64,000 nucleotides of DNA from Patescibacteria group bacterium. GTDB lineage: Bacteria; Patescibacteriota; Minisyncoccia; UBA6257; GWB1-50-10. The DNA lies in the NCBI GenBank assembly GCA_024239035.1, contig JANBVK010000001.1:423062-487061 (forward strand), read 5' to 3'. The translations under genes and the position numbers were made by a program. The notes under the pieces were generated by a model. The model was not told where the DNA came from. It made no database searches and saw only the letters and a program-made list of their open reading frames with translations. Below are positions 7,545 through 63,819 of this stretch, one piece after another; position 1 is the stretch's first letter; each line of letters starts with the position of its first letter.

Positions 7545-8609
7545 GTGATATGTTACTATTCCAATATTAATATGGTTTTCAGTCATATAAAACCTCTTTT
7601 GAGAGGTTTCCCTAAAGCGACAAGTTTGTGGTCGCTAGTTTTTATTCTGATTATTGTTGCGGCTGGTCGTTTTGCTTATTCAAAGACAGAAAGCTTTGTT
7701 AACCGTGAAGAGAGTGGTAGTTTCAGTTTCGGCGGCCCGGCTGGAAATTCAGAAGGAAATCTTGGATTTTTTTCGGGATCACTCACTTCATTGAACGGTG
7801 AATATTCAGATGATGAGGAGAAATTTCTAATATTTGACGGAGTAGTTGTTTTAGGGACCTCTCATCCTTTAAGTAATCTAATACCAACGAGAGATGGTCT
7901 GCAGAAGTATAAAGTTCAGTCGGGCGATACTCTCTCCGGCATAGCTGCTCAGTTTGGATTAACGCTACAAACTTTAAGATGGGCCAATCCCGGGCTTCGC
8001 TCGGCGATTAGGATCGGTGAAGAACTCACCATCTTGCCGGTTTCAGGGATTCTGCACGCGGTTAAGGAGGATGACTCTATCGAGTCCGTTGCTAGTCGTT
8101 ATCAGATAGACCCTAATCTCATAAGAGAGTATAACCCAGATTACCAAAAGACACTTGATTCCCCAGGTGAATTGTTAGTTTTACCCAACGCCAAACCGCT
8201 TGGGAATATAGGTTACGCCCGTTACATCCAAAATCTTCCTAATCTGAAAAGCTATTTTGTATTGCCGGCTCGGGGATGGAACTGGGCTCGACTCCATGAT
8301 TATAATGCGGTGGACATCGCCGATCAGTGTGGTAAGCCGATCTATGCTGCTGCGGAAGGATTGGTTATTGAAGAATCATCCGAAGGATATTGGAACCAAG
8401 GTCACGGCAACTACGTATTTCTGGAACACCCAAACGGCACCAAGACGCGCTACTCTCATACGTCTGAAAATTTAGTTAATGTTGGTGATTATGTTTCCCA
8501 AGGTGATCACGTCGCCTTAATTGGAAATACCGGCAACACTCACGGCCCCACCGGTTGTCATCTGCACTTTGAGACGCACGGCGCTAAGAATCCTTTTGCA
8601 ATAAAGTAA
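7545..8609 (+). CDS. LysM-domain M23 family metallopeptidase
   Basis: LysM segment SGDTLSGIAAQFGLTLQTLRWANPGL is present. The M23 motifs HxxxD and HLHFE (GNTGNTHGPTGCHLHFETH) are present. An N-terminal transmembrane segment is visible. Confidence 0.8.
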   Translation: MICYYSNINMVFSHIKPLLRGFPKATSLWSLVFILIIVAAGRFAYSKTESFVNREESGSFSFGGPAGNSEGNLGFFSGSLTSLNGEYSDDEEKFLIFDGVVVLGTSHPLSNLIPTRDGLQKYKVQSGDTLSGIAAQFGLTLQTLRWANPGLRSAIRIGEELTILPVSGILHAVKEDDSIESVASRYQIDPNLIREYNPDYQKTLDSPGELLVLPNAKPLGNIGYARYIQNLPNLKSYFVLPARGWNWARLHDYNAVDIADQCGKPIYAAAEGLVIEESSEGYWNQGHGNYVFLEHPNGTKTRYSHTSENLVNVGDYVSQGDHVALIGNTGNTHGPTGCHLHFETHGAKNPFAIK

Positions 8610-28330: not shown

Positions 28331-28392
28331 ATTGTGCTCCTACCCATAGGGCGTATAGTGTCAGTGATATTCAAATGCCAAATTTCTATTTT

Positions 28393-28427
28393 ATAATATA
28401 TCATAGAGTATATAGTTTGTCAAATTA
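28393..28427 (-). promoter_or_regulatory. promoter cassette copy 1 (TTGACA-17-TATATT on the minus strand) driving the SPFH operon
   Basis: 35-bp block ATAATATATCATAGAGTATATAGTTTGTCAAATTA. The same block recurs at 28806 and 29531. Read on the minus strand it is TTGACA, a 17-nt spacer, then TATATT. Confidence 0.65.
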
Positions 28428-28446
28428 CAGTTTTTAGTAACAGTTT

Positions 28447-28519: not shown

Positions 28520-28744
28520 TTAAACCCAACCGCTTCCGCCGCACGCGCTGCACCGTCCATTGCCACCGCAACCACTACACTTTCCACCGCCTCGGCAATG
28601 CTGACAAGTCTCCTTCGGCATCCAAGGCTTGTGGATATTACCTTCCCCCCTGCAGTTTATGCAGATGCCTTTTCCATAACACTTGAAGCATTTTCCTTTT
28701 CCTCCTCTGCACAATTGGCACTCTTTTTTTTCGTGCTGAGACAT
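28520..28744 (-). CDS. 74-aa cysteine-rich miniprotein with six DnaJ-type CxxCxGxG zinc-finger repeats
   Basis: Sequence MSQHEKKECQLCRGGKGKCFKCYGKGICINCRGEGN...CQHCRGGGKCSGCGGNGRCSACGGSG, giving six CxxC(x)G(x)G units. It has its own copy of the promoter cassette and its own terminator. Confidence 0.6.
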   Translation of the reverse strand: MSQHEKKECQLCRGGKGKCFKCYGKGICINCRGEGNIHKPWMPKETCQHCRGGGKCSGCGGNGRCSACGGSGWV

Positions 28745-28805
28745 GATTGTCCTCTCTGCTTATAGGGCTCGTGTTTTCAGAACTTGGAACTTAAGTTTCT
28801 AATTC

Positions 28806-28840
28806 ATAATATATCATAGAGCATATAGTTTGTCAAATTA
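28806..28840 (-). promoter_or_regulatory. promoter cassette copy 2 (one mismatch) driving the Cys-rich miniprotein gene
   Basis: Sequence ATAATATATCATAGAGCATATAGTTTGTCAAATTA. Confidence 0.65.
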
Positions 28841-28970
28841 AAGCTTCTTTGTCTTTGAAAAGAGAAACGCCACCAATAAGAAAAAGCCCCTACGATTTAT
28901 TTGTCGCAAGGGCCTGATTCCTCTATGTGCCCACCAAAAGGTGGGTAATAGAAATCCAGTGCTAGGGTTA

Positions 28971-29468
28971 CTACTCGCTGGAGATGGCGATACGGTCGCT
29001 CCGGAAGAGATATGCGTTATTGTACCCATTCTCCAAAAGGTACCAGCGGCATTTCCAGTATCCACCCATCTGAGGGAGGCTTAAGCCGAGCCGTCCATAG
29101 TCATGGTTGGAATCTACCACAACTATACCTGGGAAAAGAATAGAAATACTACCGCGGAGCGCTACTAATTCAGGGAATTCGTTTTGATGTTCTACGAGCC
29201 AGGCAGCGTGCTGATAACCAAGTAGGAAATCTAGCTTCGGTGCGATGCGGCACTCATACTCAAATGGGTTGATATAATCCTCATCGTCCCGCAGAATAGT
29301 GCCTAGTCGGAATGTAACCTCCCCCGTTGGAGAACTATCCCGCTCAATCCTCTTAATTGAGGAACGATCCATTCGGACGTTCTCTAGGGTTGGCCGCCGA
29401 AGACCTGGGATCTGTAACGTGAGTTCATCAGCTAGGATGATAGCCTCAGCAGTTGGCTGTTGTGACAT
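28971..29468 (-). CDS. hypothetical protein (165 aa) under promoter cassette copy 3
   Basis: ORF with an upstream GGAGG Shine-Dalgarno sequence. No recognisable motifs. GC-richer than neighbouring genes. Confidence 0.45.
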   Translation of the reverse strand: MSQQPTAEAIILADELTLQIPGLRRPTLENVRMDRSSIKRIERDSSPTGEVTFRLGTILRDDEDYINPFEYECRIAPKLDFLLGYQHAAWLVEHQNEFPELVALRGSISILFPGIVVVDSNHDYGRLGLSLPQMGGYWKCRWYLLENGYNNAYLFRSDRIAISSE

Positions 29469-29530
29469 GTTCTCTCCTCCTTATGTCAAGTATTGTTAGT
29501 TACCCATCTTCAACTGTAAGTTTCTGGTTC

Positions 29531-29583
29531 ATAATATATCATAGAGTATATAGTTTGTCAAATTAAGGTTTAGGTTATATAAT
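29531..29583. promoter_or_regulatory. promoter cassette copy 3; bidirectional
   Basis: On the minus strand TTGACA-17-TATATT serves the 165-aa gene. On the plus strand TTGTCA, a 17-nt spacer, then TATAAT (29555..29583) sits about 40 nt upstream of tRNA-Leu. The shared TTTGTCAAA core is a near-palindrome used as the -35 element in both directions. Confidence 0.55.
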
Positions 29584-29621: not shown

Positions 29622-29703
29622 GCCGAAGTGGCGGAATTGGCAGACGCGCCAGGTTTAGGACCTGGTGGGGAAACCCGTGAGAGTTCGAGTCTCTCCTTCG
29701 GCA
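29622..29703 (+). tRNA. tRNA-Leu(TAG), type II with a long variable arm
   Basis: Acceptor stem gccgaag/cttcggc. Anticodon stem ccagg/cctgg with loop ttTAGga. T-arm gagag-ttcgagt-ctctc. CCA is not encoded. Confidence 0.8.
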
Positions 29704-29704
29704 C

Positions 29705-29897
29705 ACCTGAAATTTTAGATGCCTTTTGTGGTATCTAAAATTTTATCTGAAGGTAGGGAATCGAACACGAAGGGGGGTCGGGGGAAAGTTTGAGGTTCCC
29801 CCGTGTTGGAAATTATTCAAAACCGAGGGTTGTGAAAGCGCACCGAGCACATAAAGCCTTATGTGCTCGGGAGCAGTGAGATTCTCTCCTTCGGCAC
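29705..29897 (+). repeat. tRNA-trailer element copy A
   Basis: Order: AT-rich hairpin (29710..29743), conserved core (29752..29838), GC hairpin (29843..29870), then a 15-nt duplicate of the tRNA-Leu 3' end (29883..29897). The core is about 80 percent identical to the 63596..63683 core on the opposite strand downstream of tRNA-Ser. Confidence 0.6.
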
Positions 29898-29902
29898 TAA
29901 CT

Positions 29903-29938
29903 TGAACGGCTCAACGACATTCCTCGTTGAGCCGTTCG
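29903..29938. repeat. palindromic hairpin sharing its stem sequence with the 11449..11487 hairpin
   Basis: Sequence gaacggctcaacga-cattcct-tcgttgagccgttc. The 12-nt stem core aacggctcaacg is identical to the stem at 11452. Confidence 0.5.
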
Positions 29939-29981
29939 ATAATATTGACAAAGTTCCTGATAGGACATACTTTGAGAAATA

Positions 29982-34301: not shown

Positions 34302-35195
34302 TTATTTTCTTCTGCGAGCGTGAAACGCTTCGTGTATGTCCCGGAGGTCTTTATTGGTGAGATGGGTGTAAACTTGAGTAGTTGAGATGTTCGCGTGGCC
34401 TAGAAGTTCCTGCACCGAGCGAAGGTCGGCACCGTTTATAAGGAGATCGGTTGCGAATGAATGGCGAAGCTGGTGAACATGCACCTTTTTGGGAATACCG
34501 GCTTGTCGTCCTCGAAGGTCTACTGCTCTTTGCACTGCCCGTGGTGTAATGCGGTCGAGCGCACCACCACTTCTTGAGAGACTTATAAATAATGCTTCAT
34601 TAGCATCTTCTCGTTTGTCTAAATATTTCTTGAGCGCTCGCTTTGTACCAACGGATAAAAAAACAACCCTTAACTTGTCTCCCTTACCGCGTACGGAAAT
34701 TTCCCCGCGACTCATATCTATTTTACGGTTTAAACTACAGAGTTCTGAGAGACGAAGACCGGTTGAAAATAAAGTTTCTAAAATTGCTCTGTCGCGAAGT
34801 GAACGTAGATCATTGCCCTTTGGAGCTTGGAGCAATCGCTCAAGCTCGTTGTAATCCAACGTTTCGATGTCCCTCCTCACAACTTTTGGAAGCTCAATAG
34901 TTTCAGGCGGTAATACCTTAATACCGCGTTTCACAAGATATTTTAAGAAGTTTCTGAGAGCAATTACGTAGTAACTTTGAGTGATTTTTTTAAGTTTACC
35001 CCGGCCGAGCAATATGCGGAAATCTCGAATCACTTCTTGAGTGATTTCTTTAGGAGAACGAATGTGGGATTTTTCTATAAATACACGAAGATATTGTTCG
35101 TAATTCTCCCGTGTTTTTGGGGAGCGGTTTTTTTCAATTTCTAGGTAATCAAGATAATCTTTTAATAATTTTTCTATTTCAGACATTAATTTCAT
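34302..35195 (-). CDS. tyrosine recombinase XerC/XerD family
   Basis: The C-terminal catalytic region HQLRHSFATDLLINGADLRSVQELLGHANISTTQVYTHL carries the R..HxxR..Y residues. The probable start is MKLMSEIEKLL (35195) rather than the 35399 extension. It lies 40 bp from the tRNA-Val 3' end. Confidence 0.8.
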   Translation of the reverse strand: MKLMSEIEKLLKDYLDYLEIEKNRSPKTRENYEQYLRVFIEKSHIRSPKEITQEVIRDFRILLGRGKLKKITQSYYVIALRNFLKYLVKRGIKVLPPETIELPKVVRRDIETLDYNELERLLQAPKGNDLRSLRDRAILETLFSTGLRLSELCSLNRKIDMSRGEISVRGKGDKLRVVFLSVGTKRALKKYLDKREDANEALFISLSRSGGALDRITPRAVQRAVDLRGRQAGIPKKVHVHQLRHSFATDLLINGADLRSVQELLGHANISTTQVYTHLTNKDLRDIHEAFHARRRK

Positions 35196-35348
35196 TATAT
35201 CAGAAGTGTCGTAAAAGGAGGATTGTTGCGTCAAAAATTCTTTTGACGCAAAATCCCGCGGAGATCTTACAACGCCTTGAAAAATGCCATAAAATCTCCA
35301 TCTTTGACATTTTTTCGCTTTTATAGTAGCCTTGTATTTAACATCTAA

Positions 35349-35615
35349 ATGCTCTCTAAAAGAAAGAAACAGTTTGCTATTAAGGAATACCAAAAACATA
35401 AGACTGATACGGGATCCGCGGAAGTACAGGTTGGGCTTTTGACGAAGCGGATTAAAGAATTAGCGGATCATCTAAAAAAGCACCCGAAAGATCACCATTC
35501 TCGACGGGGACTTTTGATAATGGTGGGTAAACGTAGAAAGTTTTTACAATACCTTCGTCGGGAAAATGAAAAAGTTTACGATAAACTGGCGAAGAAACTA
35601 AAATTAGAGGTTTAA
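35349..35615 (+). CDS. rpsO: 30S ribosomal protein S15
   Basis: 88 aa. [48 protein letters not shown] matches S15. Confidence 0.85.
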
Positions 35616-62073: not shown

Positions 62074-63549
62074 ATGCACAGGTTTTTTGAAATTTTACCG
62101 GGTAGCTTGGTTTGGCTTACGTTCCTCTTGATGTTTTTGTTTTCCTGGAAATTTCCGTCTGCGGTAGCTATTTTTTTTATCCTCTACACATTTTACTGGC
62201 TGTTCAGAATTATTTACCTGCATTTTCACTTACGTTTCTCTTTTAACGAGGCGCGGGAAAACCTGAAAGTTAACTGGTTGGAGAAATTAAAGCAATTGAC
62301 ACCGAGTAACTGGCAAGAGATTTACCATTTAGTTGTTTTGCCAATGTATAAAGAACCAATTGAAGTGATTGAAGAAACTTTCAAGGCCCTTAAGGCGACT
62401 GATTATCCTAAAGACAGAATTATAGTGGTTCTTGCGACCGAGGAGCGAGCCGGCCTAGAAGCGAAAAAGACTGCTTCAAAAATAGAGAAAAAGTTCGGTA
62501 AAGATTTTTTTAAATTTTTAGTTACCAATCATCCTGATAATTTACCAAACGAGATTCCAGGTAAGGGTTCTAACGAGACTTGGGCTACAAAACAGGCAAA
62601 GGAGAAAATAATTGACGTCCTTGGTCTTAATTACGAACGTATCATTGCCTCTGTTTTTGATGTTGATACCCAGGTGCCGCCGGGATATTTTGGCCGATTA
62701 ACTTATGTGTTCTTGACATGCGATAATCCCCAGAGATCGAGCTATCAACCCATACCGCTTTTTGTAAACAACATATACCAAGCTCCGGTTTTCTCAAGAG
62801 TGATGTCTTTTTTTCCGACTTTTTGGCAGATGATGCAGCAGTCCCGATTCGAACAGCTTAGCACTTTTACCTCCCAGGCGATGCCTTTTAAGGCCTTGGT
62901 GGAAATTGGTTTTTGGGATACGCATTTAGTTTCGGAGGACTCACTTGTCTTCTGGAAATTTTACTTTCATTATGATGGCGATTGGCGCACCGAGCCGCTA
63001 TACTATCCCATCTCGATGGATGCTACCTCGGCTAAAACATTGTGGGGGACGGCAGTAAATCTTTATAAACAGCAGCGCCGTTGGGCATGGGGAGCGGAAA
63101 ATATCCCTTATATGTTAAGCGGCTTTGTAAAAAATAAGAAAATCCCTTTTCGTAAAAAGGTTTTTTGGACGTTTGTTTTTATGGAAGGATTTCACTCTTG
63201 GGCTACCTCTCCTTTTATTCTTTTTATACTTGGTTGGTTGCCACTTTTTCTAGGCAGTTACGAGTTTAGCTTGACGCTCTTGTCGTATAACTTTTCCAGG
63301 ATATCGGGTTTTATATTAAATTTTTCCGTTGCAGGCCTTATTGCCTCGGCGGTTTTAAGCATCGTCTTATTACCACCTAAGCCGAAATGGTTTCGTAAAA
63401 AACACTACATCGTTTATTTCCTGCAGTGGCTTCTCGTTCCTGTCCTCTTGGTTGTCTTTAGCGCGATCCCCGCAGTCGAGTCTCAAACCCGGCTGATGTT
63501 GGGCGGCAGGTTCCGTCTCGGATTCTGGCCGACGCCGAAAAATCGTTAG
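62074..63549 (+). CDS. family-2 processive glycosyltransferase (cellulose/chitin-synthase-like) membrane protein
   Basis: N-terminal transmembrane helices. GT-A core with D, DxD (FDVDT), ED and QQRRW (QxxRW) motifs. A C-terminal transmembrane bundle follows. Confidence 0.6.
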   Translation: MHRFFEILPGSLVWLTFLLMFLFSWKFPSAVAIFFILYTFYWLFRIIYLHFHLRFSFNEARENLKVNWLEKLKQLTPSNWQEIYHLVVLPMYKEPIEVIEETFKALKATDYPKDRIIVVLATEERAGLEAKKTASKIEKKFGKDFFKFLVTNHPDNLPNEIPGKGSNETWATKQAKEKIIDVLGLNYERIIASVFDVDTQVPPGYFGRLTYVFLTCDNPQRSSYQPIPLFVNNIYQAPVFSRVMSFFPTFWQMMQQSRFEQLSTFTSQAMPFKALVEIGFWDTHLVSEDSLVFWKFYFHYDGDWRTEPLYYPISMDATSAKTLWGTAVNLYKQQRRWAWGAENIPYMLSGFVKNKKIPFRKKVFWTFVFMEGFHSWATSPFILFILGWLPLFLGSYEFSLTLLSYNFSRISGFILNFSVAGLIASAVLSIVLLPPKPKWFRKKHYIVYFLQWLLVPVLLVVFSAIPAVESQTRLMLGGRFRLGFWPTPKNR

Positions 63550-63731
63550 CGGAGGGTAGAGGGAATCGAACAAAATAATTTGGTTAACAAATTATTTTCT
63601 CAGAACCCTCGGTTCTGAGTAATCTCCAATACGGGGAGACCTAAAACTTCTCCCCGACCCCCTCTCGTGTTCGAATCCCACTGACAAGATATACAAAAGG
63701 GATATCACAAGGACATCTCTTTTGTATATTT
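63549..63731 (-). repeat. tRNA-trailer element copy B
   Basis: Downstream of tRNA-Ser on the minus strand. Order: AT-rich hairpin (atatacaaaag/cttttgtatat), conserved core (plus 63596..63683), AT hairpin (aaaataatttg-gttaac-caaattatttt), then a 23-nt near-copy of the tRNA-Ser 3' end (63549..63571 versus 63732..63754). Confidence 0.6.
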
Positions 63732-63732
63732 G

Positions 63733-63819
63733 CGGAGGGTAGAGGATTCGAACCTCTGAGGGGATTTCTCCCCAACCGCATTTCGAGTGCGGCGCATTAG
63801 ACCGCTCTGCCAACCCTCC
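63733..63819 (-). tRNA. tRNA-Ser(CGA), type II
   Basis: Acceptor stem ggagggt/accctcc. Anticodon stem ccgca/tgcgg with loop ctCGAaa. Long variable arm. T-arm agagg-ttcgaat-cctct. Confidence 0.75.

Follow-up and report, generated by a model that had tools for sequence, protein, structure and literature searches.

A conserved two-hairpin core flanked by duplicated gene ends recurs beside tRNA and protein genes in Patescibacteria

What is the DNA that separates tRNA-Ser(CGA) from the stop codon of a glycosyltransferase (GT2) gene in a Patescibacteria group bacterium, and why does it end in a second copy of the tRNA's 3' end? We analyzed a window of 64,000 nucleotides (assembly GCA_024239035.1, contig JANBVK010000001.1, positions 423,062 to 487,061 of the forward strand), for which a first-pass annotation had described this DNA as the second copy (copy B) of a tRNA-trailer element. 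All of the parts that it had described for copy B are present on the minus strand where it had placed them. The locus is organized as follows:

63732-63819, minus strand: tRNA-Ser(CGA), intact (ARAGORN; Rfam tRNA, 57.2 bits)
63549-63731, minus strand: copy B, which follows tRNA-Ser(CGA) and then runs into a near-copy of that tRNA's 3' end
63732-63754, minus strand: D1, the last 23 nt of tRNA-Ser, from the T-loop to the 3' end (sequence)
63689-63729, minus strand: AT-rich spacer hairpin S, with arms at 63689-63706 and 63712-63729 (repeat search)
63668-63682, minus strand: T' (AGTGGGATTCGAACA), the T-arm part of the tRNA 3' end in inverted orientation (repeat search)
63592-63668, minus strand: conserved core (covariance model R1, 78.8 bits, E = 2.9e-16)
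63592-63668, minus strand: order within the core, GGGGGTC, hairpin HP1 (63632-63656), GTATTGGA, hairpin HP2 (63599-63619) (R1; HP1/HP2 covariation)
63572-63598, minus strand: variable 3' hairpin with a perfect 11-bp AT stem, arms at 63572-63582 and 63588-63598 (repeat search)
63549-63571, minus strand: D2, which starts with T*, a distal tRNA-Ser 3' end (GTTCGATTCCCTCTACCCTCCGC) (repeat search)
62074-63549, plus strand: GT2 gene (ORF listing; Pfam Glyco_trans_2_3)
63547-63549, plus strand: GT2 stop codon TAG, the G of which is the complement of the final D2 base

Hairpin S of copy B has 18-nt arms that are 89% complementary in the repeat search, and alignment shows that it is missing from the empty site of a relative (L066). 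A purine linker, CGAGAG, comes right after T', and comparison of copies found a T' in every family member. The top of HP2 (AACC-GAG-GGTT) is invariant, and the variable 3' hairpin occupies the place of GGAGCG-(hairpin)-GCGAC in other copies. The final 17 nt of the 23-nt D2 match the tRNA 3' end at 94%. Counting the T before it, D2 begins with 13 nt that match the reverse complement of T' in the other copy in the window (copy A) without a mismatch (blastn, 13/13). Copy A follows tRNA-Leu(TAG):

29622-29704, plus strand: tRNA-Leu(TAG) (ARAGORN, Rfam)
29705-29897, plus strand: copy A
29682-29704, plus strand: D1, the last 23 nt of tRNA-Leu (repeat search)
29710-29743, plus strand: spacer hairpin S, with 14-nt arms that are 93% complementary (repeat search)
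29747-29767, plus strand: T' (CTGAAGGTAGGGAATCGAACA), the 3' strand of the tRNA-Leu acceptor and T-arm, inverted (fold, sequence)
29767-29843, plus strand: conserved core (R1, 75.3 bits, E = 1.7e-15)
29843-29874, plus strand: variable 3' hairpin with a GC-rich 12-bp stem (29843-29870), then the subfamily end GAGCAGTGAGA (repeat search)
29875-29897, plus strand: D2, a distal tRNA-Leu 3' end, 87% identical over 23 nt with the last 15 nt identical (repeat search)
29904-29937, plus strand: perfect 14-bp hairpin 3' of D2 (repeat search)

In the predicted fold, T' of copy A pairs with 29880-29894. The subfamily end is common to five further loci (L008, L009, L017, L018, and L059). The 14-bp hairpin at 29904-29937 is missing in L072 and in the empty sites of relatives (L073-L075), so that it probably came in together with the element. 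At 28609-28620, a Cys-rich small ORF contains 12 nt that match the tRNA-Leu end, which we attribute to chance.

Copy B thus repeats the part order of copy A, including the duplication of a tRNA 3' end, as the first-pass annotation had proposed. The two copies share a core of 80-85 nt (identity 81-84%), and the by-eye estimate of about 80% agrees with a global alignment (69/85, 81%) and with the best blastn segment (83.8% over 80 nt, E = 4e-22). The likeness spans both internal hairpins and reaches far past the T-loop-like sequence GGATTCGAAC, so the refuting condition set in the first-pass annotation does not hold. With up to three mismatches allowed, 22 nt of the core are found at two places in the window, against an expectation of 0.01. 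A 13-nt terminal inverted repeat is common to copies A and B only, which points to a common ancestor. The idea that the flanking hairpins keep an 11-bp stem in both copies was mistaken: the first hairpin of copy B has the 18-nt arms noted above, and the arms in copy A are 14 and 12 nt long.

Are the copies insertions? In a relative (L066), tRNA-Ser(CGA) and the GT2 stop are five bases apart, and hairpin and core are both missing. This is the closest relative, with a GT2 protein 90% identical, and it bears out the view of copy B as an insertion. Three further relatives (L073-L075) have empty tRNA-Leu(TAG)/YkuK sites. Since the sites of close relatives are empty at both window loci, both window copies are insertions. 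A second candidate for an empty tRNA-Ser/GT2 site (L059) was rejected; the adjoining gene there is not GT2.

D2 does abut the GT2 stop codon, its last base pairing with the G of TAG at 63547-63549. The first-pass annotation had suggested that the insertion reshaped the 3' end of GT2, a suggestion that finds no backing in the gene itself: GT2 is 491 aa long, its closest homologues are 489-493 aa, and its coding sequence aligns with the relative's gene as far as the stop. GT2 thus has its normal length. By alignment, any change is limited at most to the stop codon, from TAA in the relative to TAG, with the G supplied by the duplicated tRNA end.

We built a covariance model of the core (R1, about 76 model positions). 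R1 finds exactly two copies in the window (78.8 and 75.3 bits), and the next best match scores 12.6 bits. Beyond the window, we identified 48 matches above 40 bits (61 fetched loci), essentially all on Patescibacteria contigs and in a housekeeping-gene context. By R1, five pattern matches (L001, L012, L024, L029, and L062) are chance resemblances in GC-rich DNA. The core folds on one strand into two hairpins joined by invariant G-rich linkers, and it is conserved among very distant Patescibacteria lineages. Compensatory changes affect 9 of the 18 pairs of HP1 and HP2, which over 31 copies comprise 539 Watson-Crick, 5 G-T, and 0 A-C pairs. Elements of the family are roughly 110-300 bp long, and none of about 45 copies contains an ORF.

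No Rfam 15 family matches the core at gathering score, including self-cleaving ribozymes, omega-RNA-type motifs, and riboswitches. At E values up to 10, Rfam gives only noise-level miRNA and snoRNA matches, which fall on the flanking hairpins. The element is not described in the literature that we searched. No copy of the core turned up in pattern scans of viral contigs or in blastn searches of phages and plasmids.

One alternative, that the resemblance is due to chance or that copy B is a decayed tandem tRNA duplicate (a tRNA pseudogene), can be put aside as already refuted. Parts of the core are weakly similar to the tRNA-Ser anticodon and variable arm (77% over 26 nt), and T' and T* are T-arm-like, as a pseudogene would have them. 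Neither ARAGORN nor Rfam detects a tRNA in the core, however, and the sole tRNA match at E ≤ 10 is the 3' part of tRNA-Ser itself. The pairwise E value of 4e-22 and the model E value of about 1e-16 argue against chance, and many of the 48 further copies are at protein genes with no tRNA nearby.

The same anatomy recurs at about 20 different targets. Each element has a fixed layout: an intact gene end (D1), a spacer that is often a hairpin, T' (the inverted start of D1, directly 5' of the core), the core, and a second gene end (D2), the start of which is the direct copy T*. D1 often has its own hairpin or ribosome-binding spacer. In nearly all copies the core is surrounded by a direct repeat of the gene end, which is 14-171 nt long and always reaches the gene end. 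Identified tRNA targets, duplicated from the T-loop to the 3' end, are Leu, Ser, Met, Gly, Asp, Trp, His, Thr, Ala, and Pro. Pfam-confirmed protein targets are gyrB, pgk, rplL, rplK, and rpsI at their 3' ends, and rplP (a copy inside the S10 operon), dnaX, dinB, and a GT4 gene at their 5' ends. Copy B is accordingly no tRNA-trailer element, as the same core with inverted and direct gene-end duplications is also found at protein genes. Overall, the first-pass interpretation stands as regards a repeated insertion that duplicates tRNA ends, and fails in its tRNA specificity and its proposed effect on GT2.

The duplicated segment starts at a short motif, T, where the DNA near the gene end is best conserved. 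No sequence motif is common to different targets, and the bases before T vary (gcag, gggg, tgct, tcca, aaag, and others). T' is closer to D1 in 21 loci and closer to D2 in 6. Cores that are 89-91% identical occur at unlike targets (tRNA-Gly and tRNA-Leu; rplP and dnaX) with entirely different T' and D2, which indicates retargeting. Tandem or degenerate units are found at several loci (L005, L014, L003, L045/L047, L050, and L044), a mark of repeated insertion at one site. In the L050 array the gene-proximal core has the lower R1 score, and arrays do not all decay in the same order.

These features bear on a first rival, in which the core is a host-made cis-acting or small RNA (a trailer of a tRNA or mRNA, a module for termination or processing, or a three-way junction of the riboswitch type), T' switches between T and a decoy T*, and the duplication supplies alternative pairings. 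The predicted folds are far more stable than those of shuffled sequences (z = -5.7 and -6.3), both hairpins covary, and the junction nucleotides are invariant. The hairpins tolerate G-T but no A-C pairs, a pattern that points to one functional strand, and T' is able to pair with T or T*. The core's conservation over very distant Patescibacteria lineages also fits such an RNA, as does the orientation of the element at 3'-end targets, where it is the same as that of the gene.

At 5'-end targets, however, the element is antisense to its host gene, which argues against a role within a tRNA transcript; at rplP, dinB, and dnaX the folded strand is antisense, so read-through cannot produce it. The element thus lacks the fixed orientation to a gene expected of a cis-regulatory RNA, being sense at 3' ends and antisense at 5' ends. 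Nor was a conserved promoter found, and the core matches no Rfam family. We considered T' and T* as a selected RNA closing helix and rejected this: their mismatches comprise 19 G-T, 22 A-C, and 67 others, so that wobble pairs are not preferred over A-C and the pairing is not kept as an RNA helix. On this pattern, T' and T* are best read as copies of the gene end and not as a selected helix. A host RNA is also difficult to reconcile with the close relatives that lack the element at both window loci, with the build-up of degenerate tandem copies, and with the synonymous-type divergence of D1 and D2 (see below), which it leaves unexplained. We consider this explanation improbable.

A second rival involves integrases. 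Integrase-mediated elements insert into tRNA genes, whose 3' end is thereby duplicated as attL and attR; the segment from the tRNA T-loop to the 3' end, about 23 nt, is a classic integrase crossover sublocation. The duplications could then be att-site scars of larger integrase elements (islands or prophages that enter tRNA genes and gene ends and bring a replacement end), of which interior deletion has left just the two arms, or the product of an exploited host Xer-type recombinase. At the tRNA targets the duplicated segment is indeed of this extent and stands on both sides of the insert, the tRNA is functional, gene ends are intact, and the landing sites are conserved genes, as with integrative elements. 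The window also contains a tyrosine recombinase (Xer-like) gene (34302-35399), which adjoins tRNA-Val, has no flanking repeats, and is separated from copy A by 4.4 kb and from copy B by 29 kb.

Independent deletions would not, however, yield the same 76-position core at about 20 targets. No tyrosine or serine integrase gene lies within or adjoins any copy, the duplication varies in length (14-171 nt), and the inverted copy T' is foreign to attachment sites. No full-length core-bearing element was found, and none occurs in the viral contigs, phages, and plasmids searched. Compared with integrative elements, the family has no cargo, is only 110-300 bp long, and places one conserved core at many unrelated targets. 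The att-scar explanation is thus very unlikely and largely refuted.

Several observations suggest a third possibility, namely that the element is a guide-bearing noncoding RNA or folded single-stranded DNA. T' and T* would pair with both strands of T, and the core would either be catalytic itself or act as the scaffold of an enzyme (nuclease, recombinase, or ligase) encoded elsewhere. A conserved scaffold lies between two variable segments that match both strands of the adjacent target, near-identical cores carry wholly different T' and T*, and only one strand is the folded one. The different targets have no common sequence motif, and T falls on the most conserved gene-end motif, as expected for pairing across diverged genomes. 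This arrangement resembles TnpB/IscB omega RNAs and IS110 bridge RNAs, which likewise combine a conserved scaffold with variable segments matching the adjacent DNA; in the bridge RNA, both target strands are matched. It differs from both in having no attached nuclease or recombinase gene, no Rfam match, and a duplicated target, and in that T' and T* span the same stretch and are mutually complementary. Unlike targets of TnpB/IscB omega RNAs, those identified here have no conserved target-adjacent motif.

Other results speak against a guide. All-against-all clustering of flanking ORFs at about 45 loci found no recurrent partner, only housekeeping synteny, and no candidate effector gene adjoins these loci. 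No tnpB or iscB gene is near any genuine copy; the sole TnpB-linked pattern match (L012, ~100 nt downstream of tnpB in an actinobacterial MAG) is not recognized by R1 and is attributed to chance. Omega-RNA-type families of Rfam do not match, and T' and T* decay after insertion, so that most genomic copies could not be guides. Because group II introns are reported to be absent from Patescibacteria (PMC13011429), a group II-type retrohoming route is unlikely as well. We regard a guide-bearing RNA or DNA of this type as unlikely.

The divergence of the two gene-end copies provides a further clue. At coding targets, 56 of the 77 differences between D1 and D2 are at third codon positions, and the differing codons are synonymous in 41 cases and non-synonymous in 22. 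In the 91-nt repeat at gyrB (L033), all 12 differing codons are synonymous. This third-position bias points to the import of one gene-end copy from another genome. At the window loci, divergence between occupied and empty alleles is too great to tell the native from the imported copy. Two hints, the native-like spacer AAATAT that follows D1 in copy B (by comparison with the empty site) and the hairpin after D2 in copy A, suggest that the inserted block may be S-T'-core-D2, placed just outside the gene.

A close precedent is found in fungal mitochondria, where mORFs, mobile ORFs that are free-standing homing endonuclease genes (Allomyces atp6; Glomus atp6, atp9, cox2, and nad3), carry a foreign gene C-terminus and push the native one downstream (PMC3630166). 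This precedent favors the opposite arrangement and suggests, by analogy, a D1-S-T'-core block inserted inside the gene. As with mORFs, the Patescibacteria insertion is at a conserved gene's end, one complete end is kept on the gene with a second copy beyond the insert, and the two copies differ largely synonymously, indicative of transfer between genomes (PMC3630166). As expected of a homing-type mobile ORF, close relatives also differ in whether a given site is occupied or empty (empty in L066 and L073-L075).

A bacterial counterpart of an mORF is present at the same tRNA-Leu site in L072, where a GIY-YIG ORF is flanked by a 19-nt duplication of the tRNA end. The 3' hairpins of this insert score only 3.7 bits against R1, and it was rejected as a homologue of the core. 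GIY-YIG homologues are near a few copies only, without consistent association. Unlike mORFs, the Patescibacteria element has no ORF or homing endonuclease gene and instead has a two-hairpin core of about 76 positions; T' is always present, tRNAs and 5' ends are among the targets, and the host is a bacterial phylum, not an organelle.

We therefore propose, as the explanation that we think probable, that copy B is an ORF-less, homing-type mobile insertion element of Patescibacteria that occupies the extreme 3' or 5' ends of conserved genes. A short motif T near a gene end would be picked by base pairing or homology, and insertion would set T' and T* on either side of the core while leaving the target intact. 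An intact target would mean that there is no target immunity and that the same site stays open to further insertions. Between genomes, the element may spread by homologous recombination of taken-up DNA, with the gene body and the spare gene end as arms. The folded core would be the part recognized by a putative factor acting in trans. Natural competence, with integration of DNA by homologous recombination, has been reported in Saccharibacteria (PMC10633639).

Several observations count against a homing-type element: no enzyme is linked to it, no copy in viral contigs, phages, or plasmids gives it a known vehicle, arrays lack a uniform order of decay, and copies within a genome are diverged (A against B, 77-84%), with nothing to indicate a recent burst. 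A function beneficial to the host would likewise be compatible with the long persistence of copies at given loci in different lineages and with a core that is better conserved than the sequence around it.

In a bolder proposal, the core serves as scaffold for a programmable insertion module that is guided by nucleic acid and has no protein gene of its own. T' and T*, as single-stranded DNA or RNA, would pair with both target strands, and strand transfer by the module's own chemistry or by a recruited small host nuclease or ligase would yield the inverted and direct target duplications. We give this a small but real chance of being correct.

The guide-bearing reading could also follow the logic of folded single-stranded attachment sites. 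CTX phage attP(+) and integron attC are folded single-stranded sites that are recognized at defined sequences by Xer or IntI, respectively. The element is similar to these sites in that a single-strand fold has a stem that reproduces a double-stranded target or recombination site, the structure is kept rather than the stem sequence, and the sites are orientation-specific. It differs in that the stem is an arbitrary gene-end sequence and no recombinase is linked to it.

Like MITEs, the palindrome-associated derivatives of IS200/IS605, and REP/REPIN sequences with their RAYT (Y1) proteins, the element is small, ORF-less, structured, and extragenic. As with MITEs and REP/REPINs, there are several copies per genome, and the hairpins could form in single-stranded DNA. 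Those elements have conserved terminal repeats and a short, fixed-length target duplication. Here it is the interior that is conserved; the terminal inverted repeat copies the target, and the duplicated stretch ranges from 14 to 171 nt. The Y1_Tnp genes of related genomes show no consistent association with the element; these genes were seen only in relatives with empty sites, and none is in the window. A 165-aa hypothetical protein encoded beside copy A is unrelated to the Y1_Tnp genes found at the same position in relatives, and its only homologue near another copy is at the L005 array.

What is new here is the gene-end-duplicating layout, known from endonuclease-carrying homing elements, in a small, protein-less structured element. 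Patescibacteria have tiny genomes with few recognizable mobile elements, yet this family is present in ribosomal-protein operons and beside tRNAs, gyrB, pgk, and dnaX. If the element is of homing type and has no gene of its own, selfish DNA would persist in minimal genomes by means of a folded core and a spare gene end, and recombination of DNA taken up by the cell would be needed for its spread. That nearly identical cores differ completely in their T' and D2 shows that the element is retargetable, which would be of practical interest as a tool if targeting is guided by base pairing. Were the guided-module proposal true, the family would constitute a new class of guide-directed mobile element, and retargetable insertion would have a natural template. 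For genome annotation, the duplicated ends yield false tRNA fragments, false alternative start or stop regions, and apparent intergenic RNAs, which those who annotate these genomes should watch for; the R1 covariance model makes the family searchable.

Finally, GC skew has one sign throughout the window, though copies A and B point in opposite directions. The orientation of the element is thus set by the target gene and not by the replication fork.

We found every piece of the element that the first-pass annotation had described beyond tRNA-Ser(CGA) (copy B, 63549-63731, minus strand), ordered as in copy A beyond tRNA-Leu(TAG) (29705-29897, plus strand). Copy B and its neighbours comprise the following features, in window positions:

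63732-63819, minus strand: tRNA-Ser(CGA), the upstream neighbour
63689-63706 and 63712-63729, minus strand: arms of an AT-rich hairpin
63668-63682, minus strand: AGTGGGATTCGAACA, 15 nt complementary to the T-arm part of the tRNA-Ser 3' end
63592-63668, minus strand: G-rich core
63572-63598, minus strand: perfect 11-bp AT hairpin
63549-63571, minus strand: GTTCGATTCCCTCTACCCTCCGC, which nearly repeats the final 23 nt of tRNA-Ser
62074-63549, plus strand: glycosyltransferase gene GT2, ending in a TAG stop

The G of the GT2 stop is the complement of the final C of GTTCGATTCCCTCTACCCTCCGC. The annotation is thus confirmed on all points but one: an 11-bp stem is not a constant of the flanking hairpins. 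Core identity, put at about 80 percent in the annotation, is 81% over 85 nt (the best blastn segment, 80 nt long, reaches 83.8% with a pairwise E = 4e-22). The similarity spans two internal hairpins and so extends beyond the T-loop-like motif to which it might have been confined. The inverted gene-end copy of copy A (T', AGGGAATCGAACA, 29755-29767) and the first bases of the second gene end of copy B (63559-63571) match exactly as reverse complements, which points to common descent of the two copies.

Rfam contains no family matching the element. A scan with two conserved core blocks, GGGGGTCGGGG ... CCCCGTNTTGGA, identified 15 loci in species-representative genomes and 50 in metagenomes, nearly all of them Patescibacteria (Liptonbacteria, Wildermuthbacteria, Saccharibacteria and Parcubacteria). 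A covariance model of the core (R1; 31 copies, 76 positions, 18 base pairs) reports exactly two copies in the 64-kb window (78.8 and 75.3 bits; next match 12.6 bits). Among the fetched loci, 48 matches exceed 40 bits, some of them second copies missed by the pattern. We rejected the GC-rich pattern matches from outside Patescibacteria (L001, L024, L029 and L062), which reach only 23-34 bits under R1, and the L012 match, which R1 does not report at all.

Compensatory changes in 9 of the 18 pairs support both core hairpins. Across the 31 copies, core pairs are Watson-Crick in 539 cases, G-T in 5 and A-C in none, which implies that one particular strand is the folded strand. The search pattern itself dictated the linkers GGGGGTC and GTNTTGGA; the AACC-GAG-GGTT top of the second hairpin and the following GGAGCG are nearly invariant though absent from that pattern.

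All genuine copies share one order: gene body, intact gene end (D1), spacer (S), T', purine linker (RRAG), core and second gene end (D2). S measures 0 to about 100 nt and often forms a hairpin, and T' repeats the opening 8-22 nt of D1 in inverted orientation. D2 lies directly 3' of the core and opens with the same motif as D1 (T in D1, T* in D2). The duplicated segment starts at T, extends to the gene end in every case and spans 14-171 nt. The targets are as follows:

tRNA genes, T-loop to 3' end: Leu(TAG) (four times), Ser(CGA), Met, Gly, Leu(GAG), Asp, Trp, His, Thr, Ala, Pro
Protein-gene 3' ends: rpsI, rplL, rplK, gyrB, pgk, and gap (identified from the C-terminal peptide only)
Protein-gene 5' ends, host gene on the opposite strand: rplP, dnaX, dinB, a GT4 glycosyltransferase gene

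The element is thus a family without a tie to tRNAs, and the tRNA-trailer specificity first proposed does not hold. It always points away from the gene body, at either gene end. Where the target is a 5' end, the strand that folds runs antisense to the host gene; in L004 it does so within the S3-L16 stretch of the ribosomal protein operon. T coincides with the best-conserved motif near the gene end (for example the tRNA T-loop, S9 PQW(Q/K)KR, L16 KHRK, DinB DMDA, DnaX LYRKYRP, PGK GGGET, GyrB DVLMGE), and the T motifs of different targets have no common sequence. We also observed an element (L037, R1 core 8356-8430) that occupies the 3' end of a gene for a membrane glycosyltransferase-like protein. 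The likeness of that protein's C-terminus (...SFWVTEKIRKNF) to the one of the window GT2 (...GFWPTPKNR) suggests that GT2 gene ends, too, are targeted elsewhere. One exception to the architecture is an R1 core at L040:6970-7192, whose 3' end (GCGAC) abuts the 5' end of an intact tRNA-Pro, with neither gene-end duplication nor T' recognisable.

Related genomes provide empty sites. In the closest relative found (L066, GT2 90% identical), tRNA-Ser(CGA) ends five bases before the GT2 stop, with neither hairpin nor core at this site, in agreement with the earlier reading of copy B as an insertion. In three relatives (L073-L075), tRNA-Leu(TAG) is followed by 3-9 nt and then the promoter-like ATTGACAA of the next gene, and these tRNA-Leu(TAG)/YkuK sites have no R1 match. 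Judged by these comparisons, the elements at the tRNA-Ser/GT2 and tRNA-Leu(TAG)/YkuK loci are insertions. The proposed reshaping of the GT2 3' end was not borne out: homologues are 489-493 aa against 491 aa here, and the alignment reaches the stop codon. Length is therefore unaltered, and the sole possible effect is a TAA to TAG change, with the G coming from the duplicated tRNA end. The tRNA-Ser(CGA) genes of the window and L066 (L066:3982-4069) differ in variable arm and acceptor stem and are only ~75% identical, against ~97% for the adjacent tRNA-Arg(CCT) and 90% for the GT2 protein. The entire tRNA-Ser may have been replaced along with the element in the window.

Beside tRNA-Leu(TAG), L073-L075 encode a 231-233-aa IS200-like Y1 transposase (Pfam Y1_Tnp; L073:636-1331, L074:543-1244, L075:530-1228), apparently syntenic and single-copy. 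The equivalent window position (28971-29468, minus strand) encodes an unrelated 165-aa hypothetical protein with no Pfam family. This protein is 47% identical to an ORF (L005:6108-6830) just after the rpsI element array of L005; it was seen at just these two independent loci (window and L005), and its link to the element is a candidate one.

In a fourth relative (L072, YkuK 87% identical), at the locus corresponding to window 29622-29980, the tRNA-Leu T-loop site used by copy A is filled by another insert (L072:1131-1421). It consists of a 97-aa GIY-YIG ORF (Pfam E = 5.7e-14) and then two hairpins, after which 19 nt of the tRNA 3' end are repeated. At 3.7 bits it is ruled out as an R1 relative. 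R1 copies at tRNA-Leu(TAG) in L006 and L030 carry the 3' end subtype GCGAC and copy A carries GCAGTGAGA, so this site was struck independently. Separately, L031:6440-6800 contains tandem GIY-YIG ORFs upstream of tRNA-Met, with the first 18 nt of the tRNA duplicated and a GC-rich hairpin; this tRNA also has an R1 element at its 3' end, and thus both its ends are held by gene-end-duplicating inserts.

At protein-coding targets, 56 of 77 differences between D1 and D2 fall at third codon positions, and differing codons comprise 41 synonymous and 22 non-synonymous cases. In gyrB (L033), both copies of a 91-nt repeat encode the same 27 residues although 12 codons differ. Had the repeat arisen by duplication in place, with the spare copy decaying neutrally, most changes would be non-synonymous (~60% by our estimate); against this estimate, the gyrB case alone has a p of about 1e-5. 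The mostly synonymous differences indicate instead that one copy once served as a functional gene end in a different genome. In fungal mitochondria, mobile endonuclease ORFs bring a foreign C-terminus with them, so that the native one comes to lie further downstream, and the divergence pattern reported for them is the same as that found here (PMC3630166). The L072 GIY-YIG insert looks like a bacterial counterpart of these ORFs.

The T'/T* pairing predicted by folding contains 19 G-T, 22 A-C and 67 other mismatches; lacking a G-T excess over A-C, it is not selected as an RNA stem. T' is closer to D1 than to D2 in 21 loci (the reverse in 6), as would follow from decay of the copies T' and T* of a conserved original T, or from T' moving together with D1. 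Cores sharing 89-91% identity occur at unrelated targets (tRNA-Gly and tRNA-Leu, rplP and dnaX) with entirely different T' and D2, which indicates that retargeting swaps these segments wholesale. Tandem units occur in L005, L014, L003, L045/L047, L050 and L044, some shrunken to the 3' part of the core plus a further gene-end copy. Because insertion keeps a target copy intact, nothing bars further insertion. These arrays follow no single order of decay; in L050 the lower score belongs to the gene-proximal core.

Two hints in the sequence favour [S-T'-core-D2] over [D1-S-T'-core] as the inserted block: the native-like spacer AAATAT after D1 in copy B, and the absence from empty sites of the hairpin that follows D2 in copy A. 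We propose that the target is set by homology and not by a fixed sequence, since no motif is common to the targets, T coincides with conserved DNA and the pattern of D1/D2 differences points to inter-genome transfer. Saccharibacteria take up DNA by natural competence and incorporate it through homologous recombination (PMC10633639). A fragment running from gene body to D2 would have both homology arms within one conserved gene and could thus enter any genome with that gene, regardless of downstream DNA. The strand-specific folded core is a likely site for a trans-acting factor, and T' may, speculatively, hide the proximal repeat while recombination or repair synthesis proceeds, which would favour copying of the element over skipping it. 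GC skew keeps one sign over the whole window, yet copies A and B are oppositely oriented, so replication does not set orientation.

Duplication of tRNA ends by integrative elements is already known. Gene-end duplication by homing-type elements is also established (PMC3630166). Literature searches and Rfam gave no description of this element; an ORF-less family, here with a conserved two-hairpin core, a target-derived inverted and direct repeat, and about 20 conserved-gene targets, is not known to have been described. There is a minority chance that it represents a guide-directed insertion module of a new class. The enzyme candidates are small GIY-YIG nucleases, Y1/IS200-like proteins and a Xer-like recombinase encoded in the window, none of which shows an association with the element. 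The last of these, a tyrosine recombinase with Phage_integrase and SAM-like N-terminal domains (34302-35399, minus strand), ends ~40 nt from tRNA-Val(TAC).

The window also contains three copies of a ~45-bp repeat (ttcataatatatcatagagtatatagtttgtcaaatta; 28385-28430, 28803-28850 and 29529-29575). Both strands of this repeat carry near-consensus -35 and -10 hexamers, and the third copy closely precedes tRNA-Leu. Between two of these promoter-like repeats lies a small Cys-rich ORF (28520-28744, minus strand; 74 aa) with repeated CxxC motifs.
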